Below, one piece after another: positions 1,311 through 46,555 of a stretch of 64,000 bases of DNA. The notes beneath the pieces are model-generated. The model searched no databases. It was not told the DNA's origin and worked only from the letters and a program-made list of their open reading frames with translations. The translations under genes were made by a program, and so were the position numbers. The stretch lies in IMG/VR virus record IMGVR_UViG_3300045988_122188; one strand, written 5' to 3'. The first letter of the stretch is position 1. The number at the start of each line of letters is the position of its first letter. This DNA is from a virus.

Positions 1311-1949
1311 TTACTTCACTACATATATTTTTCTGTGCTGTTGCACATTTATTGTTTCGGAATGTGTTGATTTGAACACGTCTACATGCATTCCTTTTAC
1401 TTTGCCTCCGCAATCTTCTGCCACAAAGATTGTGTCACCGTATCCCTCAATCTTAACTCTTGTTCCATAAGGGATAATGTTTTTATCAACCGCAATCGTA
1501 TGATATGGTCGAGCAAATTTATGCCCTGCATGATTCCAAGCAATCTTAGATCCATATCCTTCAGAACATTCATAACATGGACAATATGCCGTGATCAAAA
1601 ATGTTCCAAGTGAACTCTTTTCAAGTTCTCGCTTTCGCTTCAGCCGCTGTCGTTTAATTCGCAATCGTTTCTTTCGAAGTTTTTCTAATCGAATCTGTCT
1701 TGCTTGCTCTTCATCAGCTTTCTTACATTTCTGATAATGCTCATGAACATCTTTTAATGCAACGCTTTGGCTGATTGGATTGTCTGAAATCACATTGCCT
1801 TGCTTATTTTCTGCAACAGTTGTCTCTGTTGATAAGGTTGAAGCCTCTACCGAGGGTCGCTCCTCTGCTTTAACCGTGTGAGTCATAAAGCCCGAACACA
1901 TTGCTAAAAAACTAAACGAGACAACTTTCATTAAAAATCTTTTTCTCAT
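1311..1949 (-). CDS. Secreted 3D-domain protein (MltA/YocH-like cell-wall-binding or lytic module)
   Basis: Signal peptide MRKRFLMKVVSFSFLAMCSGF... A Lys/Arg-rich linker precedes a C-terminal 3D domain (GTFLITAYCPCYECS...VAEDCGG...VDVF). The start is placed at 1949 because it has an RBS (AAGGAAAGGAAA) and lies downstream of the predicted promoter. Confidence 0.6.
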   Translation of the reverse strand: MRKRFLMKVVSFSFLAMCSGFMTHTVKAEERPSVEASTLSTETTVAENKQGNVISDNPISQSVALKDVHEHYQKCKKADEEQARQIRLEKLRKKRLRIKRQRLKRKRELEKSSLGTFLITAYCPCYECSEGYGSKIAWNHAGHKFARPYHTIAVDKNIIPYGTRVKIEGYGDTIFVAEDCGGKVKGMHVDVFKSTHSETINVQQHRKIYVVK

Positions 1950-1979
1950 TTTCACATTTCCTTTCCTTAGCATATTGGT

Positions 1980-2017
1980 ATCTTATCATACTTCTTGCAC
2001 CCTGTCAATAGGTGCAA
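1980..2017 (-). promoter_or_regulatory. Sigma-A-type promoter with an operator (copy A): -35 TTGACA at 2003-2008, 17-nt spacer, -10 TAAGAT at 1980-1985; inverted repeat TTGCACC/GGTGCAA over the -35 box
   Basis: Read directly from the sequence. A near-identical module recurs at 43997..44034 and 29885..29913. Confidence 0.6.
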
Positions 2018-2026
2018 AGAATAAAG

Positions 2027-4300
2027 TTAATTTTTTAGGCTTAACCAAGTGCGCCTCTTATTATGATTTGTCATAATACATCTCTTAAACGCTTCTGGCT
2101 CTGCAAGGAGTGCAAATCTTTTCTTAGCTCGTGTCAACATTGTATATAACATACAGTTATCAAGCAATTTGTAATGTGTATTGTCAATAATACCGATCAC
2201 AGTTTGCGCAGCTGATCCTTGAAGTTTATGCGTGGTTAATGCATATGCTAATTGCAGTTGTCCTAACTGAGCGAAAGAATATTCAATCAGCTTTTCTTCA
2301 ATATTTGCATTCATAGACACCAAACATATTTCTTTTTCTTTGTCAATCTCTGTAATGTATCCAATATCACCATTGAATACATCTCGCTCGTAATCATTTG
2401 AAGTCTGTAATACCTTATCTCCTAAATAGTATTTACGATCTTTGAATTCAACAAATGGTTTGTTACTACTAGCAAATAATTCTTTCTGTACTGCTTTGTT
2501 CAATTCATCTGTGCTGTTCGTACAATTACTTCTTCGTGGAGAAATAATCACAACATTGTCAAGCCCTTCCTCTTTGACAGATTTGATATACTGCTTTACT
2601 GCCATATTGAACAATGATTCTCTATTCTTCCTGAACAAATAAAACATATCATTTAGTTCACCATGAACAATTTTTAATTGTGGGCTATCCAATGGATTAA
2701 TCCCTCTGCGAATCTTTCTTGCATCCGTTAAAATACCAGATTTTTCTGCTTGTCTCATCGGTTTGGTAAGCTGTACACTATTTAAACCTTTCTTTTTCAA
2801 CAGATCCGAGAAAATATTACCAAATCCAATCGGTGGCAACTGCATATAGTCACCACAAAAAATTAATCGTGTTCCTGGTCGAATTGCCAATAAAAAATTA
2901 TAGAAAAGGCTCGCATTTGTCATGCTACTTTCATCCATGATTACTACATCAGCAGGTAATGGGTTATCTTGGTTATAACAAAAACTATCAATACCTTCTG
3001 CTACAAGTAACCTATGAATAGTCCGTGAGTCTAAGCCTGTTGCTTCTTTAATTCTTTGGGCTGCTTTTGCAGATAAAGCACACGCAACAATGCTATTATT
3101 TCTTTTTTGGTAGCATTTAATAATTGGTTTCAGAATTGTTGTTTTACCAGTTCCAGCTTCTCCAGAAATAAACACAACTTGGCAATTTAATGCTTTGTTA
3201 ACTCCTGTAATTTGTTCTTCTGAAAACATAAACCCTTCTTCATCTTCAACTTCAGAAATCGTCTGACTAATCTCACTATCTGTTATTGGTTCGTAATCTG
3301 TTGTATTTCCAAATGAATATTTCTCCATATCTTTAATAAATTCGTAAATATCCATTTCAATTTTATAATACGATTTCAGACCAATTTTATCTCCAGATGT
3401 ATATAAATAATTTGGTAATTTTTTATCTGATTCTTCATCAAACCATTCGTCAAATATAGGTAAGCATTCAGACGCTGCATTACTAATATTGCTTCTTAAA
3501 TTTTTGATATACACATATGTATGTCCATCATTATCACCAACTTGATGCAAGTCGTAAGAAATAAATGCGTTTAACCGTTGATTTGAGCATCGCAATTCTG
3601 GTTTTAATTTGAGCGCAATATCATCAACTCGTTTAAAGCCCATGCCCTTTACCCTAGTTAGTATATATGGATTTTGTTCAATCTGTTTTTTTAAAACACT
3701 TGGATTAGGTTCGGATTTCAATAATCTTTCAATCGTTGGTAACGTAACCCCATATGGTTGCAACATTACAACAATATCAGAAATCACATAGTTTTTAATA
3801 ATTTTATCTCTAAGCTTCTTCCAAGTTTTATCTCCTAGTCCTTTGATTTCTGAATGGTCAATCATCTCTAACTGACCATTCATTACATCTTCAACAACAT
3901 TAGGATATTTCGCAATTAACTGATCTGCGATCACTGCGTTCGTCTGTGTTTTTAAAAATACCTTTTGTGCTTCAAAAGTTTTAGGAACTTCAGCAACTAT
4001 AGAAAGTGGTTTATATTGGTATTCATTGTATTTCTTAGAATATGTCATATTGGCTTTAACCTTATATTTCGTTCCTAAATACAACTCCTGCATATTACCA
4101 ACCAATTTGCCACATTTATTCATTTTTTTATCGGATAAGTCATCAAAATCATTATTATTATATGGTTTACATTCTGGTAAATCTTCTGCTGTACAGAATG
4201 TGTAAATCCCAAATAAAGATTCTTCATTATAATAAATCTGATATAATGGGACAATCTCAAACTCATATTCTTTTGTACTATCCACCACTTTAGGCGACAA
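2027..4300 (-). CDS. recD2: RecD-like (RecD2-type) SF1 DNA helicase
   Basis: Walker A VFISGEAGTGKTT, Walker B VVIMDESSM, and the C-terminal motif LAYALTTHKLQGSAAQ. N-terminal HhH-like region. Confidence 0.85.
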   Translation of the reverse strand: MSPKVVDSTKEYEFEIVPLYQIYYNEESLFGIYTFCTAEDLPECKPYNNNDFDDLSDKKMNKCGKLVGNMQELYLGTKYKVKANMTYSKKYNEYQYKPLSIVAEVPKTFEAQKVFLKTQTNAVIADQLIAKYPNVVEDVMNGQLEMIDHSEIKGLGDKTWKKLRDKIIKNYVISDIVVMLQPYGVTLPTIERLLKSEPNPSVLKKQIEQNPYILTRVKGMGFKRVDDIALKLKPELRCSNQRLNAFISYDLHQVGDNDGHTYVYIKNLRSNISNAASECLPIFDEWFDEESDKKLPNYLYTSGDKIGLKSYYKIEMDIYEFIKDMEKYSFGNTTDYEPITDSEISQTISEVEDEEGFMFSEEQITGVNKALNCQVVFISGEAGTGKTTILKPIIKCYQKRNNSIVACALSAKAAQRIKEATGLDSRTIHRLLVAEGIDSFCYNQDNPLPADVVIMDESSMTNASLFYNFLLAIRPGTRLIFCGDYMQLPPIGFGNIFSDLLKKKGLNSVQLTKPMRQAEKSGILTDARKIRRGINPLDSPQLKIVHGELNDMFYLFRKNRESLFNMAVKQYIKSVKEEGLDNVVIISPRRSNCTNSTDELNKAVQKELFASSNKPFVEFKDRKYYLGDKVLQTSNDYERDVFNGDIGYITEIDKEKEICLVSMNANIEEKLIEYSFAQLGQLQLAYALTTHKLQGSAAQTVIGIIDNTHYKLLDNCMLYTMLTRAKKRFALLAEPEAFKRCIMTNHNKRRTWLSLKN

Positions 4301-20254: not shown

Positions 20255-20796
20255 TGTTTCATTTCTCCTTTCACAACATAGGACTCAATCAATCCTTTTC
20301 TTAGTCGATCATTCATATCCTGAATCGCTTCCTCAATTGTCTTAAATTTACATGAACAAATATGCTCTTTGGTCAAATTAACAAATGAATATGTGCCATC
20401 TGACTTGTTCCTAAAAATAACAACCACTGATTCTTCTCCATCTGGTTTCTTAACAATAAATCTGAGCGCACCTTTTTGTGTTTCCTTTTTATTTTCAAGT
20501 AAAATAGTATAATTGATTTTTAACCAGCTACCATATGCCCATACTTGTTTAATTTTTTCTTCAGCATTTTGAAGTACACAATGTCTATAATCAATACTCT
20601 CGATATTATAGACAAGTGATTCAATGGCTTCTTTATCATTTTTTATTGTAATTTGACCATGCGTTCCATTTCTTCCATCTGCAATCGCATCAATAAATTC
20701 TTCTACAGTATATTCTTTATCAAGCACAACATCATATTTAGTATATTTATCGTTATCAGAACGTGGGCGTTTTATTAATTTAAACATCCCTATCAC
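20251..20796 (-). CDS. Hypothetical protein
   Basis: ORF of 181 aa, downstream of the HigA-like gene. Confidence 0.4.
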   Translation of the reverse strand: MIGMFKLIKRPRSDNDKYTKYDVVLDKEYTVEEFIDAIADGRNGTHGQITIKNDKEAIESLVYNIESIDYRHCVLQNAEEKIKQVWAYGSWLKINYTILLENKKETQKGALRFIVKKPDGEESVVVIFRNKSDGTYSFVNLTKEHICSCKFKTIEEAIQDMNDRLRKGLIESYVVKGEMKQ

Positions 20797-21049
20797 CTAC
20801 TTTCTTATCAAATGTTTCTTGCAAATTTAACCAGAACTGCCCATCATCAGCAAACCCATAATGGTCTGCCATTGTTTTCGCAAATTCTTTTGTAACACTT
20901 TGTGATCCGTCAATCAACCCTTGAACATAATCAACATCCATGCCAATTTTACTCGCAAGCTGATAAGGAGTCATCCTGCAAGATTCAACAAATTCTTCTA
21001 AGCATTCGCCAGGATGAAAAGCAATTTCGTCTCCAATCTTTACATACAT
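20780..21049 (-). CDS. HigA-like XRE-family HTH protein
   Basis: HPGECLEEF...MTPYQLASKIG...FWLNLQ pattern, typical of HigA antitoxins. Confidence 0.6.
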   Translation of the reverse strand: MYVKIGDEIAFHPGECLEEFVESCRMTPYQLASKIGMDVDYVQGLIDGSQSVTKEFAKTMADHYGFADDGQFWLNLQETFDKKVGDRDV

Positions 21050-21051
21050 TT

Positions 21052-21885
21052 TTACACCATTCCTCTCACAATTCGTTCATTTGTTGTCATCAAGAAGTTA
21101 TTGATACGATCCCAGTCTGGTTCGTCTGGCAAATCAGTATTCATATAATCATAATCAAATTGATAAAGTAATCCTTCAATAAAAACATCGTATGACTGAT
21201 TTGGGAAATATTCTGTATGCTCATTGTGTTTGCTAAATCTATATGTTTTATGCGTACTATTATACCCTTCTTTGATCTTTACAAGATCTTTTCCTATGTC
21301 GTCCATAGACCCAAACATTGTTCCGTTATGTAATAATTCAATGCCCTGCAACAATAATCGAACTGCATGCATCATTGATTTATTAGCGTATCGTTCTGCC
21401 TTTTGCTTTTCTTTCTCTGAATCTTTATTTTTATAATACTTAAAACTCGTTCGAGTCAGACAATCGCATATATATCCTTTATATGCATGATAAACTCTCT
21501 TAGATAAGAACATGTCTCTATTTTTGATCAACTCCATACCAATATCGGATACATACAAATAGCGGTCTGGCGCAAAGTATAGCAACTCTAAAAATGTAGG
21601 ATTGCCCTTGGCAAGCATATTAATCATCTTAATATGCGAATGTAACACGGTATCAATGTCTTTATGATTATCGGTCTTCTCAAGATTGTTCTGGTTATTA
21701 TTCAACAAAATCTCTCTTTTATCACTAAGAAAAACACCACGTAAATCAATGTCAGAATCCTCTGTGTTTGTTCCGTAGGCATAACTTCCACCTAACGTGA
21801 GAAAAGCGATTTTGTGCGGATAATCTCGCAAAAAGTCATACTCTGTAGACGAGTTTATGTAATTCTTTACTTCTTCAATTGTCAT
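21052..21885 (-). CDS. Pol-beta-superfamily nucleotidyltransferase
   Basis: GS motif LGGSYAYGTNTEDSDIDLRGV. Start moved to MTIEEV, which has an RBS (AAGAGGTGAG). Confidence 0.6.
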   Translation of the reverse strand: MTIEEVKNYINSSTEYDFLRDYPHKIAFLTLGGSYAYGTNTEDSDIDLRGVFLSDKREILLNNNQNNLEKTDNHKDIDTVLHSHIKMINMLAKGNPTFLELLYFAPDRYLYVSDIGMELIKNRDMFLSKRVYHAYKGYICDCLTRTSFKYYKNKDSEKEKQKAERYANKSMMHAVRLLLQGIELLHNGTMFGSMDDIGKDLVKIKEGYNSTHKTYRFSKHNEHTEYFPNQSYDVFIEGLLYQFDYDYMNTDLPDEPDWDRINNFLMTTNERIVRGMV

Positions 21886-21898
21886 GGTCTCACCTCTT

Positions 21899-22432
21899 TT
21901 ATCCACATAATGCTTTCTTAAACTGTACAATATTTTGACTAACCCACTGATGAGTGATTCCAAGCTGACTTGCAATTTGTCTTTGTGTTAAACCTTTCTG
22001 CTTTAACGTGATAATCTTTTTATTTCTCGGTGCCAATTTATCAAACTCATTTTGAAAATGTACCTTTGTAAGCACCTCATCTTCTACGTTATCCCCACTC
22101 ATCAGTGTTGTTCCGATTGTAATATCATCTTCTGGTTCATATCCTGCCAATGGCGTATCTAACGATTCAGCATTCCTATTCATTTTTTCTGTTGGTCTGT
22201 GCCATTTTGTATAATATTGATTCACTTCTGAACGTAATACCCAGAAGAGATATGTACCAAAAGTTCCTTTAGACTCGTCCCATTTTAATGCTGCTTTACA
22301 AATTGCCATACGACCAAGATCCATATATGTATCAAAATCTGTAAACTTTGTAAAATATTTTTCATGTAAATGCCAAATTAAAGAATAATTATCTTCAATC
22401 AGCTTTCGCTGTTCATCATTTAATTTCTTCAC
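21899..22432 (-). CDS. Sigma-70-family sigma factor, second paralog
   Basis: N-terminus KLNDEQRKLIEDN is paralogous to 15317..15856. C-terminal HTH LKQKGLTQRQIASQLGITHQWVSQ. Confidence 0.7.
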   Translation of the reverse strand: MKKLNDEQRKLIEDNYSLIWHLHEKYFTKFTDFDTYMDLGRMAICKAALKWDESKGTFGTYLFWVLRSEVNQYYTKWHRPTEKMNRNAESLDTPLAGYEPEDDITIGTTLMSGDNVEDEVLTKVHFQNEFDKLAPRNKKIITLKQKGLTQRQIASQLGITHQWVSQNIVQFKKALCG

Positions 22433-41242: not shown

Positions 41243-41893
41243 CTACCCAATTATATTCTGGATCAGCTCATAATACTTTGTCCTGCCGACATACGACTTA
41301 TGTTCTGCATCTTTTAATTCTTTCTTCAAAGTACATATATCTTTCTGATTATCCATACAATTCTGCATCACTTCTATGTATCGAATACAATTCTTGATTT
41401 TTCTGTGTAATTCTTGTAAGGTTTTAAGATACCCAACAATCACTGCACGTTTCGCAGCATCAATCTTTTTAAACTCAATCGCATGAAGAATATCACTTCT
41501 GGCAGAATCGGCATATGATAATGCCTGCTCTAATTCAAACTTCTTTTCTCCTAATTGATCTGAGTCATATGCTAGAAGTCCTACTATAGCTCTTTCCTCA
41601 GTCTCTATATTGTCGATCAATGTATTATCACATTCCCAATCCATAAAGCAATTTCCATTACCCTTACGCATTATTTCACTAGATTCCATAGGTTTTCCAA
41701 CTTTACCTAGCTCAATTTCTCTGGCATGAAATCCGTCTTTCATCCACGTATATTTATGCTTCAAACCTAAAATGTGCTTTGCTTGTTTGGAGGTAAATTG
41801 AGTAGCTTCAGACTTACGGTTATCACGAACGTATCTATTTCTTGCATGATCTCTTTTCACATAGAACTCTTCATTCGTAATTATGTATTTCAT
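41243..41893 (-). CDS. Hypothetical protein
   Basis: ORF of 216 aa. Confidence 0.45.
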   Translation of the reverse strand: MKYIITNEEFYVKRDHARNRYVRDNRKSEATQFTSKQAKHILGLKHKYTWMKDGFHAREIELGKVGKPMESSEIMRKGNGNCFMDWECDNTLIDNIETEERAIVGLLAYDSDQLGEKKFELEQALSYADSARSDILHAIEFKKIDAAKRAVIVGYLKTLQELHRKIKNCIRYIEVMQNCMDNQKDICTLKKELKDAEHKSYVGRTKYYELIQNIIG

Positions 41894-41939
41894 ACATCAC
41901 TCCTGTATTTAATTGTAGTTTTTTGGAAAAATTTTCATG

Positions 41940-41968
41940 TTGACGAACATGTTTAGAATTGTTATAAT
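41940..41968 (+). promoter_or_regulatory. Near-consensus sigma-A promoter on the plus strand: TTGACG, 17 nt, extended -10 TGtTATAAT
   Basis: -35 at 41940-41945, TG at 41960-41961, -10 at 41963-41968. There is no plus-strand protein gene downstream. Confidence 0.65.
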
Positions 41969-41974
41969 GATTTT

Positions 41975-42070
41975 AAGGATATTATTATCCTTTCAGATTA
42001 AACAATTCTAAATATCAAATTCGATTTTCTATCGTGCTGCCAACACGGTAGATTCAAAAAATCTTTTTTT
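41975..42070 (+). ncRNA. Candidate ~95-nt small RNA
   Basis: Bounded by the promoter above and an intrinsic terminator (AGATT/AATCT stem plus TTTTTTT at 42050-42070). Two internal hairpins: AGGATA-TTAT-TATCCT and CTATCGTG-CTGCCAA-CACGGTAG. Confidence 0.45.
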
Positions 42071-42086
42071 GTTATCTATGATTTGT

Positions 42087-42452
42087 TTAGTTGAAATTTT
42101 TAGTTTGTGTGAAAGTAGAAGTTTTACCAAAGACTTCTGCTTTCTTTTTTATTGTCTGTATTTTTATTCCAACATTGTATCTCTCTTTGTATGTAAATTG
42201 CAGGCATTTGATTATGTCAAATATGTCGTCCTGCCTAATATGAGAGAACAAATTCTCATCTTGAATAAATTCGATCCAATGATATGAAAGATCTTTATCT
42301 TTGCCATAGATCTTCATCTTTCTATCATCTGCTCGAATCTTATATTCACTCAGAAACCACGATGACATTTCTGATGAGTGTAAATCAAGTACATCAATAT
42401 GCATTTGATTTGATTGATTCGCTGCTAACATTTCTAATATTTGATTGTCCAT
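42087..42452 (-). CDS. Hypothetical protein
   Basis: ORF of 121 aa. Confidence 0.45.
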   Translation of the reverse strand: MDNQILEMLAANQSNQMHIDVLDLHSSEMSSWFLSEYKIRADDRKMKIYGKDKDLSYHWIEFIQDENLFSHIRQDDIFDIIKCLQFTYKERYNVGIKIQTIKKKAEVFGKTSTFTQTKNFN

Positions 42453-42466
42453 ACATATACCTTCCT

Positions 42467-43495
42467 TTATTCTGCCATGATTTGATGTACACGATAATTC
42501 TTATAGTCCTCATCTTTATATAGGTAACCAATACTTTTACCGATTACCGTTTGACGATCACTAAATTGTTTCTTCTTTATTCTATATGATATATAATAAT
42601 TATAATAAAAATCAATTGCAATATCACTAAATTGACGTGCGATTACAGATCGTGCAATTCCTTCTTTTGATTTAATATAATATAAATCTGCAATTGCCTT
42701 GATATCCATTTTAGATTTTAAATATTGTATAAAACCAGAATTAATAACATCAATGGTTGTCAATTTTTCATAAGATAAAGTATTGCCTGTTAATTCTAAT
42801 TGAGACTGCACATTATTATATATCCTCTTTTGCTCTGCTTTATATTCTTCTATATTATTACATTTTTTTCGTGGTATTAATACAAAATCATCATATATAT
42901 TCGTATCTCCCATTTTCAATTTATATTCATTCAATGTCTCGATAAAATCTTTGGAGACTGGTTTCCCAAAAATTGTTAAATCATTTTGATTAATATCCGA
43001 GAATTTTAGATTTCTTAACTCCTTTCCATTTATCCCATTATATAAACTCACAATGTGAAATCTAGTATTCAATTTGGTATCGGCTGATGCATTGCACGAC
43101 ATCAGATTCGAAATAAACGCATTTATTTTATCTGGCGTAACATAATTAACATTAACTCTATTTGAAAAATATATATCAACTGCTAATTGCAAGTTTATAA
43201 ATTTATCATTAACAAATGGATTATATTTAATGTAATTTTGTTCATATGCATAAGTATACAATTTCACAAGCTGGTCATATCTTTTTTTAATAGAATTCAT
43301 ACTTTTGGTTTTTTTACCTCTAGTATCTGATAATATAGCCTTTTGGATTGTGCCTGGTGCATACGTTAACCCAGATTCATTGTCGTCCGCAATATCAGAA
43401 TCTAATAACCAATTCCATGTTGGGCGACGTGATTCTGATACGTGAGAATCTATATAATTTTGTATCAATTCTTTATTATTCATAACATTCTCCAT
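42467..43495 (-). CDS. Tyrosine-recombinase-like protein; canonical catalytic motifs are not evident
   Basis: N-terminal SAM-like region and a box-I-like segment ELRNLKFSDIN. No clear HxxR or terminal Tyr motif. Immediately downstream of the MazF-like gene. Confidence 0.3.
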   Translation of the reverse strand: MENVMNNKELIQNYIDSHVSESRRPTWNWLLDSDIADDNESGLTYAPGTIQKAILSDTRGKKTKSMNSIKKRYDQLVKLYTYAYEQNYIKYNPFVNDKFINLQLAVDIYFSNRVNVNYVTPDKINAFISNLMSCNASADTKLNTRFHIVSLYNGINGKELRNLKFSDINQNDLTIFGKPVSKDFIETLNEYKLKMGDTNIYDDFVLIPRKKCNNIEEYKAEQKRIYNNVQSQLELTGNTLSYEKLTTIDVINSGFIQYLKSKMDIKAIADLYYIKSKEGIARSVIARQFSDIAIDFYYNYYISYRIKKKQFSDRQTVIGKSIGYLYKDEDYKNYRVHQIMAE

Positions 43496-43497
43496 TT

Positions 43498-43947
43498 CTA
43501 GGATGCCATTGCATTCATGTACGATAACATGCCGTTTTGTATTAAAATGCCATGCCCTATTTTTAACATTAAAGATAGATCAGATATTCTTCCCCAATAC
43601 TCTAAAAGATTATTCTTTGGAATTGTTCTTCCTTGCTCTAAATACACCTGTGATACCATTTTTAATCCATTACTGGTATTTGGATAAATGGTCACATGTG
43701 TCGGTATCCAGTTCCTTAATTTTTTTGTAATTGGATACACGTTAATCTCAGTGCTTGTATTATTACAAATATTATTAGAATATACGATGACTGGTCTTTT
43801 CCCATGCAAGATGTGACTACCTTCAATTTTCGGCAAATCTGCAAAATATATTCCCCAAACTTGAGGATTTTGATATTTGCCATATACATATTCTTTTCTT
43901 TTTCTGTTATCGTTTCCTTTTCTTTCTTTGTTAGTATATCCGTTCAT
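43498..43947 (-). CDS. MazF/PemK/EndoA-family endoribonuclease toxin homolog with a basic N-terminal extension
   Basis: GIYFADL...GKRPVIVYSNNICN...IPTHVTIY...SQVYLEQGRTIPKNNL matches B. subtilis EndoA as recalled (VYFADL, RPVLVIQND, LPTHVEI, ILLEQIRTIDKQRL). Start set at MNGY, which has a GAGGG RBS; the longest ORF begins at 43977. Confidence 0.8.
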   Translation of the reverse strand: MNGYTNKERKGNDNRKRKEYVYGKYQNPQVWGIYFADLPKIEGSHILHGKRPVIVYSNNICNNTSTEINVYPITKKLRNWIPTHVTIYPNTSNGLKMVSQVYLEQGRTIPKNNLLEYWGRISDLSLMLKIGHGILIQNGMLSYMNAMAS

Positions 43948-43996
43948 TTTACGTCCCTCAACTTTCCCCAGTTGCATTTTTTATTTTCATGAATTA

Positions 43997-44034
43997 AATA
44001 TACCATACTTTTTGCACCCTGTCAATAGGTGCAA
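43997..44034 (-). promoter_or_regulatory. Promoter with operator (copy B): -35 TTGACA at 44020-44025, 17-nt spacer, -10 TATATT at 43997-44002; inverted repeat TTGCACC/GGTGCAA
   Basis: Read directly. Near-identical to copy A at 1980..2017. Confidence 0.6.
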
Positions 44035-44106
44035 GAAAGAAAGTTAATTTTTATTGTGAACAAAGAATCTCTACATTTCTTATTATAATGCTACCATAGA
44101 ACAAAA

Positions 44107-44427
44107 TCAAGATATTTTTCGAACAGATGTTCTCTTTTTGTTCGAACACTTTACTTTGTGCTTACTTGGAAGGGGGAAATACTGTCTAACTTTATGAGGC
44201 TTATCCAGTTTCCATTTCTTTTCTTCAAAATCATAGTCACAAAAATCAAGCACTTCGTCCACACATCCATCATTATATTTGTAATCCACAATAACGGGAT
44301 ATGTTTTATATCTCATATAACGTGATGCATTATCTGGTTTTAGTGGCGGAATCTCGGCTGAAATCCACATAAGATTCTGGTTTGCTTTCTTTTCTTCCTT
44401 ATTTTGTCTAATCGTATTTATCTTCAT
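44107..44427 (-). CDS. Hypothetical protein
   Basis: ORF of 106 aa. Confidence 0.4.
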   Translation of the reverse strand: MKINTIRQNKEEKKANQNLMWISAEIPPLKPDNASRYMRYKTYPVIVDYKYNDGCVDEVLDFCDYDFEEKKWKLDKPHKVRQYFPLPSKHKVKCSNKKRTSVRKIS

Positions 44428-44438
44428 ACAAAATTCTC

Positions 44439-45185
44439 CTATAAAATCCTAATAATTTGTTCGTAAATTGCAATCGCATTATCTCCTGGAAAGTTCTGGT
44501 TCACATGCATATGCCCAAAGAACCATTTTTGATAAATCACTTTGTCTTTTATTTGCTGTAAATAATCCGTTAACTTGTCAGATTTGTACACTCCTGATCC
44601 TTGATCCATTTGTCTTAAAACAGATGTGTATGGACTATGTGTAATAACGTAATCTACTTGGAAGTCATTTTTCTCTAAATTCATCACACCTTCTGCCATC
44701 TCTTTATCAGATGGCAATTCTTCTTTCCACCAGCTCACATGATTAATCCTAAACATTTTGTCATAATCTCTGTACCATTCATTAATTCTTGGATCGTCTG
44801 GCTCTAAAATTCCATCTTGCACATCATGGGAACTGGCACCGCCAAATGTAAAGAATTTCTTTCCTTGAATTTCAAACACCTGTCCACGCATAAGATGAAA
44901 TACAGAGTCTTTGATCTTGTGAATCTTTCCGCCACACCATTTCTCTACAGGATATTGATATAAGCGGTCGTAATTTTCATGATTCCCACATACAAACAAT
45001 GTAGTAAATGGCTTGTTATCTAACCATTCCAGATTATATCGTTCTTCTTTTGTGTCATGCCACAGTCCAAAATCTCCGCAGATAATCACATAATCATCTT
45101 TGGTTAACTCAACTCCCTCTGGGAAAGAACGACTGTTTAATCGAGTCATCCAATCCCCATGTGTATCTCCTGTTACAAATATCAT
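44439..45185 (-). CDS. Calcineurin-like metallophosphoesterase
   Basis: MIFVTGDTHGD, IICGDFG and GNHENYD motifs. Confidence 0.8.
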   Translation of the reverse strand: MIFVTGDTHGDWMTRLNSRSFPEGVELTKDDYVIICGDFGLWHDTKEERYNLEWLDNKPFTTLFVCGNHENYDRLYQYPVEKWCGGKIHKIKDSVFHLMRGQVFEIQGKKFFTFGGASSHDVQDGILEPDDPRINEWYRDYDKMFRINHVSWWKEELPSDKEMAEGVMNLEKNDFQVDYVITHSPYTSVLRQMDQGSGVYKSDKLTDYLQQIKDKVIYQKWFFGHMHVNQNFPGDNAIAIYEQIIRIL

Positions 45186-46132
45186 ACAATTACTCCTTCC
45201 AATAACTCTTCTAATGCCTGCATATTATCTTCATGTACTCTATCATCTTGATCTGCATCATCTTTGCCAGTCTTATAAGCAAACTTGATAATCTCCATAA
45301 CTCTATCATAACTCACATTAACAACATTTTCCTTCAATCCGTTAAAAGCCCCACTGATAATTTCCTTGTATGTCTGCGCAATATCATCAAACAATACATG
45401 AGTTTCTTCCTCTGTGATTGTTGCATACAGAAATGTCATTGCAGGGCTACTATGATTCAATAATCTCATAAGTGTATACAATACGTTCTGATCATCTTTA
45501 TGATCGACAAGTGTCCAATACACAAAGTTCTTTCGTAATGTATGCGTACCAATATTGTCCTCAATTCCAACTGCTTTAGCACCTTTTTTAACAAAATCCA
45601 AAGCATTTGCTTCAGTCATGTGTCCTGATCCAGACTTACATGTTCCAAAAACATAATCATCCATTGGCACTTCGCCATCAATCTTGACATCATATTTAGT
45701 TCCTGCAACAGCTTCAAAGAAAATATCCACTGCTTCAGTTACCAAATCGTTAAAGTATACAGTTCTGAATTTCTTTGTTTTCTTTTCCTGCTTACGAGTC
45801 TTATCGTTTAATAAATCGCCCCATTTGAGTCTGACGATATCAGAGATACGATATGCTGTATTGTTTCCAACTGCAACCAAAAGATTGTTTCTGGCAGCTA
45901 CATATCGTTTGTACTCTGTGTACGATTTATCAATCTGGTCTCTAAAATATGCATTAAAGGCTGCAAATTTTTCTTTGTTCTTAATTGGATACACTAAAGA
46001 TGATACGCCTTTTTGTTTATTAGATCGAGTCCATTTAGGATTTCCGTCCTTACGTCTTTTGATCTTTGCTTCAGGTTCTTCTGCGTTATTATTGTTTGCT
46101 GTTTTAATAACTTCAAACTGTGTTGCTGCCAT
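45182..46132 (-). CDS. int: Tyrosine-type site-specific recombinase / integrase
   Basis: Box I AYRISDIVRLKWGDL, box II GTHTLRKNF, and LLNHSSPAMTFLY carrying the catalytic His and Tyr. Confidence 0.75.
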   Translation of the reverse strand: MAATQFEVIKTANNNNAEEPEAKIKRRKDGNPKWTRSNKQKGVSSLVYPIKNKEKFAAFNAYFRDQIDKSYTEYKRYVAARNNLLVAVGNNTAYRISDIVRLKWGDLLNDKTRKQEKKTKKFRTVYFNDLVTEAVDIFFEAVAGTKYDVKIDGEVPMDDYVFGTCKSGSGHMTEANALDFVKKGAKAVGIEDNIGTHTLRKNFVYWTLVDHKDDQNVLYTLMRLLNHSSPAMTFLYATITEEETHVLFDDIAQTYKEIISGAFNGLKENVVNVSYDRVMEIIKFAYKTGKDDADQDDRVHEDNMQALEELLEGVIV

Positions 46133-46158
46133 GATAATCTCTCCTCTCTTAATTATTC

Positions 46159-46491
46159 TTACACTCTCTTAATTACTTTTTCTATTTCCTGTGCCAACAG
46201 AAAATCATTTATTGCATTTTCATCGTCAGTAATCAATGTATATTTCCATACTGGGGAACCATGATATGATATATCTTCAACCTTAAATAATGCTCTTTTA
46301 CCAGTGTTATTTTCTCTATGATCTGACTCCAATAACTCTGTATGAATTCCCCAACTATCATATAGATGTCCATCGTATAGTATTTGAGCCGCAGCTATTA
46401 ATATATTATATTTACTCACATCAACCTCTGTATTCACTGTTCCGTATAATTTCATTGTTCCAATCTCCTCTCTAATTATTGCACTGTTCAC
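46159..46491 (-). CDS. Hypothetical protein
   Basis: ORF of 110 aa. Confidence 0.4.
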   Translation of the reverse strand: MNSAIIREEIGTMKLYGTVNTEVDVSKYNILIAAAQILYDGHLYDSWGIHTELLESDHRENNTGKRALFKVEDISYHGSPVWKYTLITDDENAINDFLLAQEIEKVIKRV

Positions 46492-46555
46492 GTACTTCTG
46501 GTCTAATTTCTACTTCGATTAATTCCATAATTCTTACTCCTATTCTCTAAATTTA

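Follow-up and report, generated by a model that had tools for sequence, protein, structure and literature searches.

MazF toxins are known with ribbon-helix-helix (RHH), AbrB, and a few other small antitoxins. In this study, we have analyzed a predicted MazF/PemK-family endoribonuclease gene and the gene of a recombinase-like protein directly behind it (the partner) in a 64,000-nucleotide stretch of phage DNA, IMG/VR record IMGVR_UViG_3300045988_122188; the whole 64-kb stretch is referred to as the window, and the phage genome is ~160 kb. The chromosomal systems that come closest, Bacillus MazF/EndoA-MazE, MoxT (PemK)-MoxX, and Staphylococcus aureus MazEF, resemble this phage module in toxin family, in fold, in the positions of the catalytic Arg and Thr, and in sequence (33-34% identity), and the Bacillus and S. 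aureus mazEF loci are, like it, two-gene operons with a palindromic operator (putative in the phage) over the promoter. However, the phage gene order is reversed, with the toxin first; the partner is a basic, 338-aa recombinase-fold protein, whereas the mazEF antitoxin is an RHH or AbrB protein of ~90 aa; and the phage module adds an N-terminal tail on the toxin, a LexA-type promoter, and a copy of the operator at a distant gene. The small upstream antitoxin that defines mazEF and pemIK was looked for and not found; therefore, the module is not a member of that group.

A second parallel is with SPbeta and phi3T, in which a dead recombinase serves as the repressor and the host's MazF promotes lysogeny (PMC10516654; PMC10769878; bioRxiv 10.1101/2025.11.27.690993), and in which the MrpR/SroF regulatory region has a functional link to the MazF pathway and to SOS (PMC10769878; bioRxiv 10.1101/2025.11.27.690993). 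MrpR (YopR) of SPbeta and SroF of phi3T are phage-encoded proteins with a core-binding plus catalytic-domain (CB + CAT) fold that have lost the catalytic arginines and histidine, as has the partner described here. However, MazF is a host protein in those phages and is phage encoded here. MrpR and SroF act as monomers on 24-26-bp asymmetric sites at many loci, whereas the module has a dyad-symmetric site at two or three promoters; their many long asymmetric elements (SPBRE) are not matched by the two dyad-symmetric sites found in 64 kb. No aimR-aimP or yopMNOPQ synteny was noted in the immediate neighborhood of the module, and hhalign of the partner family profile gave probabilities of 0.3% against SPbeta YopR and 0.9% against YopP. 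The parallel is striking and, on these comparisons, is one of analogy, not homology.

Genes of the phrog_1936 group in Firmicute phages (Lactobacillus phage ATCC 8014-B2, NatCom gut phages, and Enterocloster phage PMBT24) encode proteins 31 to 42% identical to the toxin and likewise have no recognizable MazE neighbor, but they lack both the N-terminal extension and the dead-recombinase partner, and their neighbors are unrelated; a literature search found no functional study of these "MazF-like growth inhibitor" genes. Phd-Doc of the plasmid-prophage P1 is also a toxin module on a phage genome with a site-specific tyrosine recombinase gene nearby, although its toxin and antitoxin families differ from those of the phage MazF module; addiction of the Phd-Doc kind would explain maintenance if the present phage were a plasmid-prophage. 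In the literature searched, we found no account of a recombinase-fold protein as the partner of a MazF toxin.

Our reading, to which we assign a probability of roughly 0.4, is that the locus is an autoregulated, SOS-responsive MazF module in which the dead recombinase is an operator-binding regulator and probably an atypical antitoxin. Taken separately, the role as a regulator is probable; the role as a direct antitoxin is put forward tentatively, at somewhat less than an even chance. The module is unusual in that the toxin comes first, in its large dead-recombinase partner, and in its second, SOS-type promoter and small regulon. An earlier note on this DNA, made from the sequence alone, had described MazF as the first gene of an operon with a degenerate recombinase-like protein in second place, which holds, and as a solo toxin, which does not: the downstream protein is an obligate partner that codiverges with MazF, and the operator arms at two promoters far apart correspond to its allele. 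These properties favor the downstream protein as a noncanonical antitoxin or regulator. The features concerned are as follows (labels of the form L0xx, L1xx, and L2xx denote related loci or genomes, or their clades).

44120..44133, minus strand: putative LexA (Cheo)-type box AGAACATCTGTTCG, 9 nt upstream of the P1 -35
44082..44110, minus strand: promoter P1, TTGATT-17-TATAAT, 10 of 12 consensus positions, hexamers invariant in all aligned clades
44012..44034, minus strand: putative dyad operator TTGCACC-N9-GGTGCAA ("copy B"), centered on the P2 -35
43997..44025, minus strand: promoter P2, TTGACA-17-TATATT with extended TG, 11 of 12 consensus positions, conserved in all clades
43948..43990, minus strand: conserved leader GCAACTGGGGAAAGTTGAGGGACGTAAA with a Shine-Dalgarno sequence, nearly invariant across clades and noncoding in L052, L056, and L059
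43498..43947, minus strand: predicted MazF/PemK-family endoribonuclease, 149 aa, with Pfam, PHROG, and structural relatives and a disordered basic N-terminal tail (residues 1-28)
42467..43483, minus strand: catalytically dead tyrosine-recombinase-fold protein, 338 aa, the proposed operator-binding regulator and atypical antitoxin
1984..2035, minus strand: promoter-operator "copy A," before the secreted M15-like peptidase gene (1311..1973, minus strand)

The partner most likely starts at position 43483, which is preceded by a GGAG Shine-Dalgarno sequence and lies 14 nt after the MazF stop codon; an ATG at 43495 was considered as the start and has no Shine-Dalgarno sequence. The earlier note had listed a 342-aa integrase-like protein without obvious catalytic residues; the likeness to recombinases and the loss of the residues stand, and the length is more likely 338 aa. 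Sequence searches with the partner gave a subthreshold integrase SAM-like match and PHROG phrog_1 ("integrase"), and PF00589 itself gave no match. Profile-profile alignment of the partner family with a true integrase gave a probability of 96%, and the protein has a CB + CAT recombinase fold, with structural matches that include SroF-DNA and MrpR. Two independent profile alignments placed the Arg I column at I151/N152, His II at I244 (I, N, or T in the family), and Arg II at I247 (I or L); no basic residue is conserved in the family at these three columns, and the Tyr region is not alignable. The loss of Arg I, His II, and Arg II makes the partner a dead recombinase: judged by its sequence, it is not a functional tyrosine recombinase. 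Its family comprised 8 clusters among 5.8 billion and 8 matches at an E value of ≤1e-3 among 1.84 billion representatives, the three weakest of which were ordinary integrases; tblastn against phages returned a single match (E = 0.7).

The toxin itself is a typical MazF-family protein. The enclosing open reading frame (ORF) (43498..43977, minus strand) carries all four of the motifs on which the family assignment had first been made, IYFADL, RPVIVYSNN, IPTHVTIY, and VYLEQGRTI, and the protein matches Pfam PemK_toxin (PF02452) at 57.4 bits (cutoff, 23.1; E = 2e-15) and phrog_1936, "MazF-like growth inhibitor" (E = 3e-15). Translation probably starts at the ATG at 43947, 6 nt after a GAGGGA Shine-Dalgarno sequence. 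An ATG at 43977 has no Shine-Dalgarno sequence and is missing in three other clades; since it is not conserved, the protein is taken as 149 aa from 43947, as previously proposed. The closest solved structures are those of B. anthracis MoxT, B. cereus and B. subtilis MazF/EndoA, and S. aureus MazF (E = 3e-10 to 2e-8). In an AlphaFold2 (AF2) model with a predicted local distance difference test (pLDDT) score of 68.6 overall and core block means of ~70 to 88, the SH3-like barrel and C-terminal helix superpose on the solved MazFs, with Foldseek target-normalized template modeling (TM) scores of 0.77 to 0.83 against 4mdx, 1ne8, 4hke, and 4mzm.

The catalytic Arg and Thr, which we take to be R25 and T48 in B. 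subtilis MazF numbering, are kept, with GVRPV/GKRPV and AITAQ/PITKK aligned to the solved relatives; Arg51 is invariant in the phage clade, and Thr74 is at least 90% conserved (Ser in one clade). The catalytically dead MazF for which the earlier note had allowed is thus not what the alignment shows, and the protein is predicted to be an endoribonuclease with an intact active site and RNase activity. The MazF ORF is intact in 50 of 51 IMG/VR loci, and its ratio of nonsynonymous to synonymous substitution rates (dN/dS) is ~0.09 to 0.14; PADLOC and NCBIfam gave no match for MazF or for the 338-aa partner. The N-terminal extension, first put at roughly 35 aa, is real and basic, with an isoelectric point (pI) of 9.9, and is ~28 to 30 aa long. 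Residues 1 to 28 have pLDDT scores below 50 and are predicted to be disordered. Only this clade has the tail. Both ends of the tail carry conserved motifs (MNGYT and Y-x-YG-K/R-Y/F-x-x-P-x-VW), and the stretch between them is of variable length (8 aa are deleted in L039/L040, and there are insertions elsewhere), the proteins ranging from 141 to 173 aa.

Context was checked in six clades or clade groups (window type, L044 type, L202 type, L052/53, L056/57, and L059/L205). In every clade with retrievable context, the partner lies directly behind the PemK gene, with a gap of ~7 to 20 nt or a 23-nt overlap (the genes overlap in L059 and L205), and close MazF relatives that carry the tail are always followed by the partner where the contig is long enough. 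The 51 IMG/VR loci, most of which are 99 to 100% identical in MazF, have both ORFs intact, except for loci cut by contig ends and L048. Tight linkage and coinheritance, by which toxin-antitoxin pairs are recognized, were found for MazF and the partner in all clades.

MazF and the partner also diverge together. When the window is aligned with L044, the flanks are 89 to 100% identical, but the stretch from ~44093 to ~42470 is only 44 to 79% identical; this is the only strongly diverged segment, and it consists of exactly P2, MazF, and the partner. At the amino acid level, the identities are 70% for MazF and 56% for the dead recombinase, versus 92 to 99% for the neighboring genes. Synonymous sites within the block are saturated (proportion of synonymous differences, 0.71 to 0.77; dN/dS, ~0.15), whereas the flanking genes have synonymous divergences (dS) of 0.13 to 0.5; therefore, the block is an old allele that has been exchanged by recombination, and its dN/dS indicates that MazF and the partner are both under purifying selection. 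In most comparisons, the dN/dS of the two genes was 0.09 to 0.27, with the partner reaching 0.51 in L059. A third allele occupies the same slot in L202 (MazF, 71%; partner, 65%). This pattern of divergence is that of an exchangeable specificity cassette.

As the earlier note had it, a promoter-operator copy lies upstream of MazF: the window contains precisely two instances of TGCACCTATTGACAGGGTGCA, one at 44013-44033 and the other at 1996-2016 (0.00 expected by chance), and copy A is a 52-nt repeat, 90% identical to copy B and ~42 kb from it. An inverted repeat is present at the same place, the P2 -35, in each clade, and its sequence is different in every clade:

Window type: TTGCACC-N9-GGTGCAA
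L044 type: ~11-bp arms around ATGCT/AGCAT
L202 type: TTGACACT-N7-AGTGGCAA
L052 type: AACTAAAC-N17-GTTTAGTT
L205 type: perfect 13-bp arms, ATTACCAATCCAA-N11-TTGGATTGGTAAT

Shuffle tests of the P2 dyad in the individual clades gave P values of 0.026, 0.14, 0.014, 0.10, and 0.0005, which Fisher's method combines to ~2e-5. The arms are constant while the spacer varies between genomes, independently at the two sites, and the arm type agrees between the MazF and peptidase sites in all 42 genomes that have both loci (37 window type and 5 L044 type). A distant operator that has changed along with the cassette allele is expected if the cassette encodes the operator's specific binder, and, of the proteins in the cassette, the dead recombinase alone has a DNA-binding fold. 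An exact search of IMG/VR for L202-type and L052-type operators returned no contigs, so the test of arm covariation draws on two allele types only. By analogy, arms of 7 to 13 bp around a spacer of 7 to 17 bp are reminiscent of recombinase core sites.

Exact operator copies number two, rarely three, per 150-170-kb genome, and all stand before accessory genes. A third window-type promoter-operator precedes an extra gene of 117 to 130 aa in L147 (7050-7072, minus strand), L138, and L180; thus, the promoter-operator behaves as a portable cassette for accessory genes. The MazF-side operators of L048 and L043 have a T-to-C change in one arm. The 220-aa peptidase encoded behind copy A combines a lipoprotein-like signal sequence (…FLAMCSG…) with an L-Ala-D-Glu/M15 peptidase domain, and it could be a lysogenic-conversion or superinfection-exclusion factor coregulated with MazF.

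The sequence GAAC-N4-GTTC is the Firmicute LexA (Cheo) box. The box at 44120..44133 is the sole match to CGAAC-N4-GTTCG, with at most one mismatch, in the window, and GAAC-N4-GTTC lies at a fixed distance from P1 in the window, L044, L048, L052/53/55, L059, and L202, with one mismatch in L056/57. In L052 the box is noncoding, because the upstream gene is absent there. It is this conservation and position, not the count, that carry the argument that the site would be bound by LexA. Just downstream of the P1 -10, at the expected transcription start (window ~44058-44080, minus strand), there is an inverted repeat, AAGAA-N7-TTCTT, followed by TTGTT; the repeat is found in all clades, is perfect in L056 (AAGAAT/ATTCTT), and could be a second operator or an attenuator.

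Tight linkage, codivergence, and a putative palindromic operator on its own promoter are features of a type II toxin-antitoxin-like autoregulated module. It can be envisioned that P1 and P2 both feed one operon that encodes MazF, then the dead recombinase, and then a 121-aa protein, and that DNA damage raises transcription from P1 via the LexA-type box. Two copies of the dead recombinase, in which the DNA-clamping architecture is kept, would bind the arms of the inverted repeat, a site resembling a pseudo core site, and would thereby repress P2 and the same promoter cassette before the secreted peptidase gene. The dead recombinase may also hold MazF harmless by direct binding, as a large antitoxin encoded after its toxin; at a minimum, it would keep MazF synthesis low. 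We infer both its DNA binding and its neutralization of MazF. Upon LexA cleavage, or titration or degradation of the regulator, MazF would cut RNA, and the outcome may be host shutoff, prophage or plasmid addiction, or a push in the lysis-lysogeny decision.

Several observations weigh against this proposal. The partner is basic overall (pI 9.0), unlike the acidic, RNA-mimicking tails of MazE-type antitoxins, and its AF2 model is poor across residues 233 to 338. One LexA box match per 64 kb, with 0.51 expected, is not significant by itself. The five L044-type genomes may be one lineage, in which case the agreement in 42 of 42 genomes may represent a single event plus gene conversion. In L048 (6001-6357), MazF has a premature stop, leaving 118 aa from the MNGYT start without the C-terminal helix, and the partner is intact; the partner therefore has a role beyond any MazF neutralization. 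Finally, the operator could in fact be bound by a dimeric helix-turn-helix (HTH) protein from another part of the ~160-kb genome, and the 121-aa protein or a convergent small RNA could be the real antitoxin.

The alternative that best survives these data, although we consider it unlikely, is that the dead recombinase is a regulator only, which represses P2 and the peptidase promoter; MazF would never be neutralized posttranslationally but would be off until SOS induction or infection and would then act as an offensive or shutoff RNase. The covariation of the operators and the DNA-binding fold suit a pure repressor, as do the basic character of the partner and its retention in L048; the LexA-type box is a plausible trigger, and other phage MazF-like genes also stand without a recognizable antitoxin neighbor. 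However, P2 is near consensus and the repressor would be made after the toxin from the same transcript, so that derepression would expose the cell to free MazF, and the divergence of MazF and the partner as one block would not be required without an interaction. The offensive shutoff of the host with self-protection, which the earlier note had suggested, likewise finds no support in motif avoidance: the phage coding strand shows no depletion of UACAU, the canonical site of Firmicute MazF (z = +1.9), a weak test in that the phage enzyme's own motif may differ.

Distinctly less likely than regulation alone is a broader form of the proposal, in which the phage has built an allele-specific, SOS-triggered decision or immunity switch from a MazF RNase and a dead recombinase that serves as repressor and antitoxin. 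If this is true, the phage has internalized the MazF arm that SPbeta-type phages borrow from the host, and the recombinase-fold antitoxin is a new antitoxin class.

The position in which a mazEF antitoxin would be expected is empty. MazF is separated from the upstream gene (44107..44427) by 159 nt that contain two strong sigma-70-type promoters but no ORF, as the earlier note had supposed in finding no MazE- or RHH-like gene there; the upstream gene itself (106 aa) matches no family and is missing from L052/L053. The search for a distant mazE-like gene that the note had recommended found no match to the MazE/AbrB, RHH, PemI, or Phd family among the 47 small coding-strand ORFs of the 64-kb window. 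The MazF-like genes of the NatCom_42228 and PMBT24 phages are likewise without a recognizable antitoxin neighbor. Two candidates of other kinds lie on the far side of the partner:

42087..42452, minus strand: third operon gene, 121 aa, starting 14 nt after the dead-recombinase stop codon; no family match
41940..42075, plus strand: predicted small-RNA-like unit convergent to the MazF operon, with a promoter, a 5' hairpin, a second hairpin, and a U-run

That one of these is the real antitoxin is, in our estimation, improbable. Both stand beside the pair in every clade, the 121-aa homologue following it directly. The 121-aa protein is mildly acidic (pI 6.4). The small RNA has a promoter (TTGACG-17-TATAAT; 11 of 12 consensus positions) that does not vary among any of the clades, a 5' hairpin whose stems covary, and a conserved AUUAAACAAUUCUAAA unpaired between the two hairpins; in the second hairpin, the loop, CUGCCAA, is invariant and the stems covary, with G.U pairs that are valid only on the plus strand, and 12 nt separate the end of the U-run from the 121-aa gene's stop codon. 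A small RNA has been suggested as a MazF decoy in SPbeta-like phages (PMC10769878). However, both candidates lie outside the swapped block and are 88 to 93% identical (93% for the 121-aa protein in L044), compared with 70% for MazF, and therefore have not codiverged with the toxin. An RNA duplex search with the small RNA against translation start regions found nothing special for MazF or the partner, UACAU is absent from the small-RNA sequence, neither candidate has a family match, and an Rfam scan of 41800-46500 gave no match.

Other toxin-antitoxin-like genes were seen at a distance. The only DNA-binding match among the small ORFs is a HigA-like XRE-type HTH protein of 89 aa (20780..21049, minus strand; FHPGE...WLNLQ; HTH_31 below the Pfam threshold), far from MazF and directly downstream of a gene for a 307-aa RlaP/Pol-beta-type nucleotidyltransferase (21052-21975, minus strand); the two could be an unrelated toxin-antitoxin-like or regulator pair. 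L052 carries a canonical Phd/YefM-YoeB pair (1-491) ~4.5 kb upstream of its MazF module.

Slightly less probable than an antitoxin role for the 121-aa protein or the small RNA is an SPbeta-like lysogeny switch, in which the dead recombinase would be a master repressor like MrpR or SroF and the phage MazF would replace the host MazF that promotes lysogeny in phi3T. The structural matches of the partner to SroF-DNA and MrpR are consistent with such a role, as are the SOS input through the LexA-type box, the presence of a canonical integrase 1.7 kb upstream, and the resemblance of the divergence of repressor and operator to heteroimmunity; moreover, the phi3T sro operon encodes, together with SroF, phi3T_93, which releases host MazF from MazE (PMC10769878). 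Nevertheless, the partner has no sequence relationship to YopR/MrpR or YopP and is structurally no closer to SroF than to ordinary integrases, and its dyad operator stands at two, rarely three, accessory promoters, whereas SroF and MrpR bind many long asymmetric sites at lytic promoters. In addition, a scan of 185,579 reference bacterial genomes found no integrated copy of either the MazF gene or the partner gene.

It is very unlikely that MazF is a true orphan toxin neutralized by a host MazE, or a nontoxic, domesticated MazF that processes phage RNA. Its identity to Firmicute chromosomal MazFs (~33 to 34%) and the lack of a MazE-like gene in the window fit this explanation, but the MazE search covered 64 of ~160 kb, and an obligate partner that diverges with MazF is left unexplained. 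Least probable of all is the other noncanonical antitoxin proposed in the earlier note, the N-terminal extension as an intramolecular inhibitor, since the clade-specific tail, for all its conserved end motifs, is predicted to be disordered, is variable in length, and is so basic that it would repel, not mimic, RNA in the basic groove; the downstream protein, the note's other candidate, is the one that we favor.

If the dead recombinase does act as we propose, a large recombinase-fold partner encoded after its toxin would add a new class of antitoxin or regulator and would be the second, independent case of a phage tyrosine recombinase turned transcription factor, after MrpR/SroF. The allele-specific operator-regulator pairs would serve as natural specificity-swap controls. 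The module may explain the purpose of the many "MazF-like growth inhibitor" genes that Firmicute phages carry without an antitoxin, and it would make the connection of MazF with lysis-lysogeny, recently found in arbitrium phages, accessible through a phage-encoded system.

The phage family to which the window belongs is uncultured and is represented in IMG/VR by contigs of 150 to 170 kb. All of its genes are on the minus strand, and its G+C content is ~0.33 overall and 0.29 across 42-44 kb. Cultured phages are all distant: a megablast search of the locus against 50,697 phage records gave no match, and the DNA polymerase of the window is only ~32% identical to its best matches. When ten neighboring proteins were scanned with Pfam for partition and lysogeny functions, only Bro-N matched; when ten more proteins, nine of them encoded in the replication/NAD region at 9-36 kb, were compared with PHROG, no such function emerged either. 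The predicted hairpin in the MazF leader is not energetically significant (z = -1.2).

The genes for the canonical tyrosine integrase (PF00589, with the box I Arg and HxxR present) and for a calcineurin-like metallophosphoesterase overlap by 4 nt (44439-45185 and 45182-46132, both minus strand); the L044/L048 type and L052 lack the metallophosphoesterase or have a replacement for it. The window also holds a replication module, consisting of the polymerase and DnaB-like helicase, primase, RecJ-like, and exonuclease V-like proteins, and many small genes without an assigned function, together with NAD-salvage genes: the nicotinamide phosphoribosyltransferase and ribose-phosphate pyrophosphokinase genes (33905-35374 and 35371-36207, both minus strand) overlap and form a phage NAD-salvage pair.

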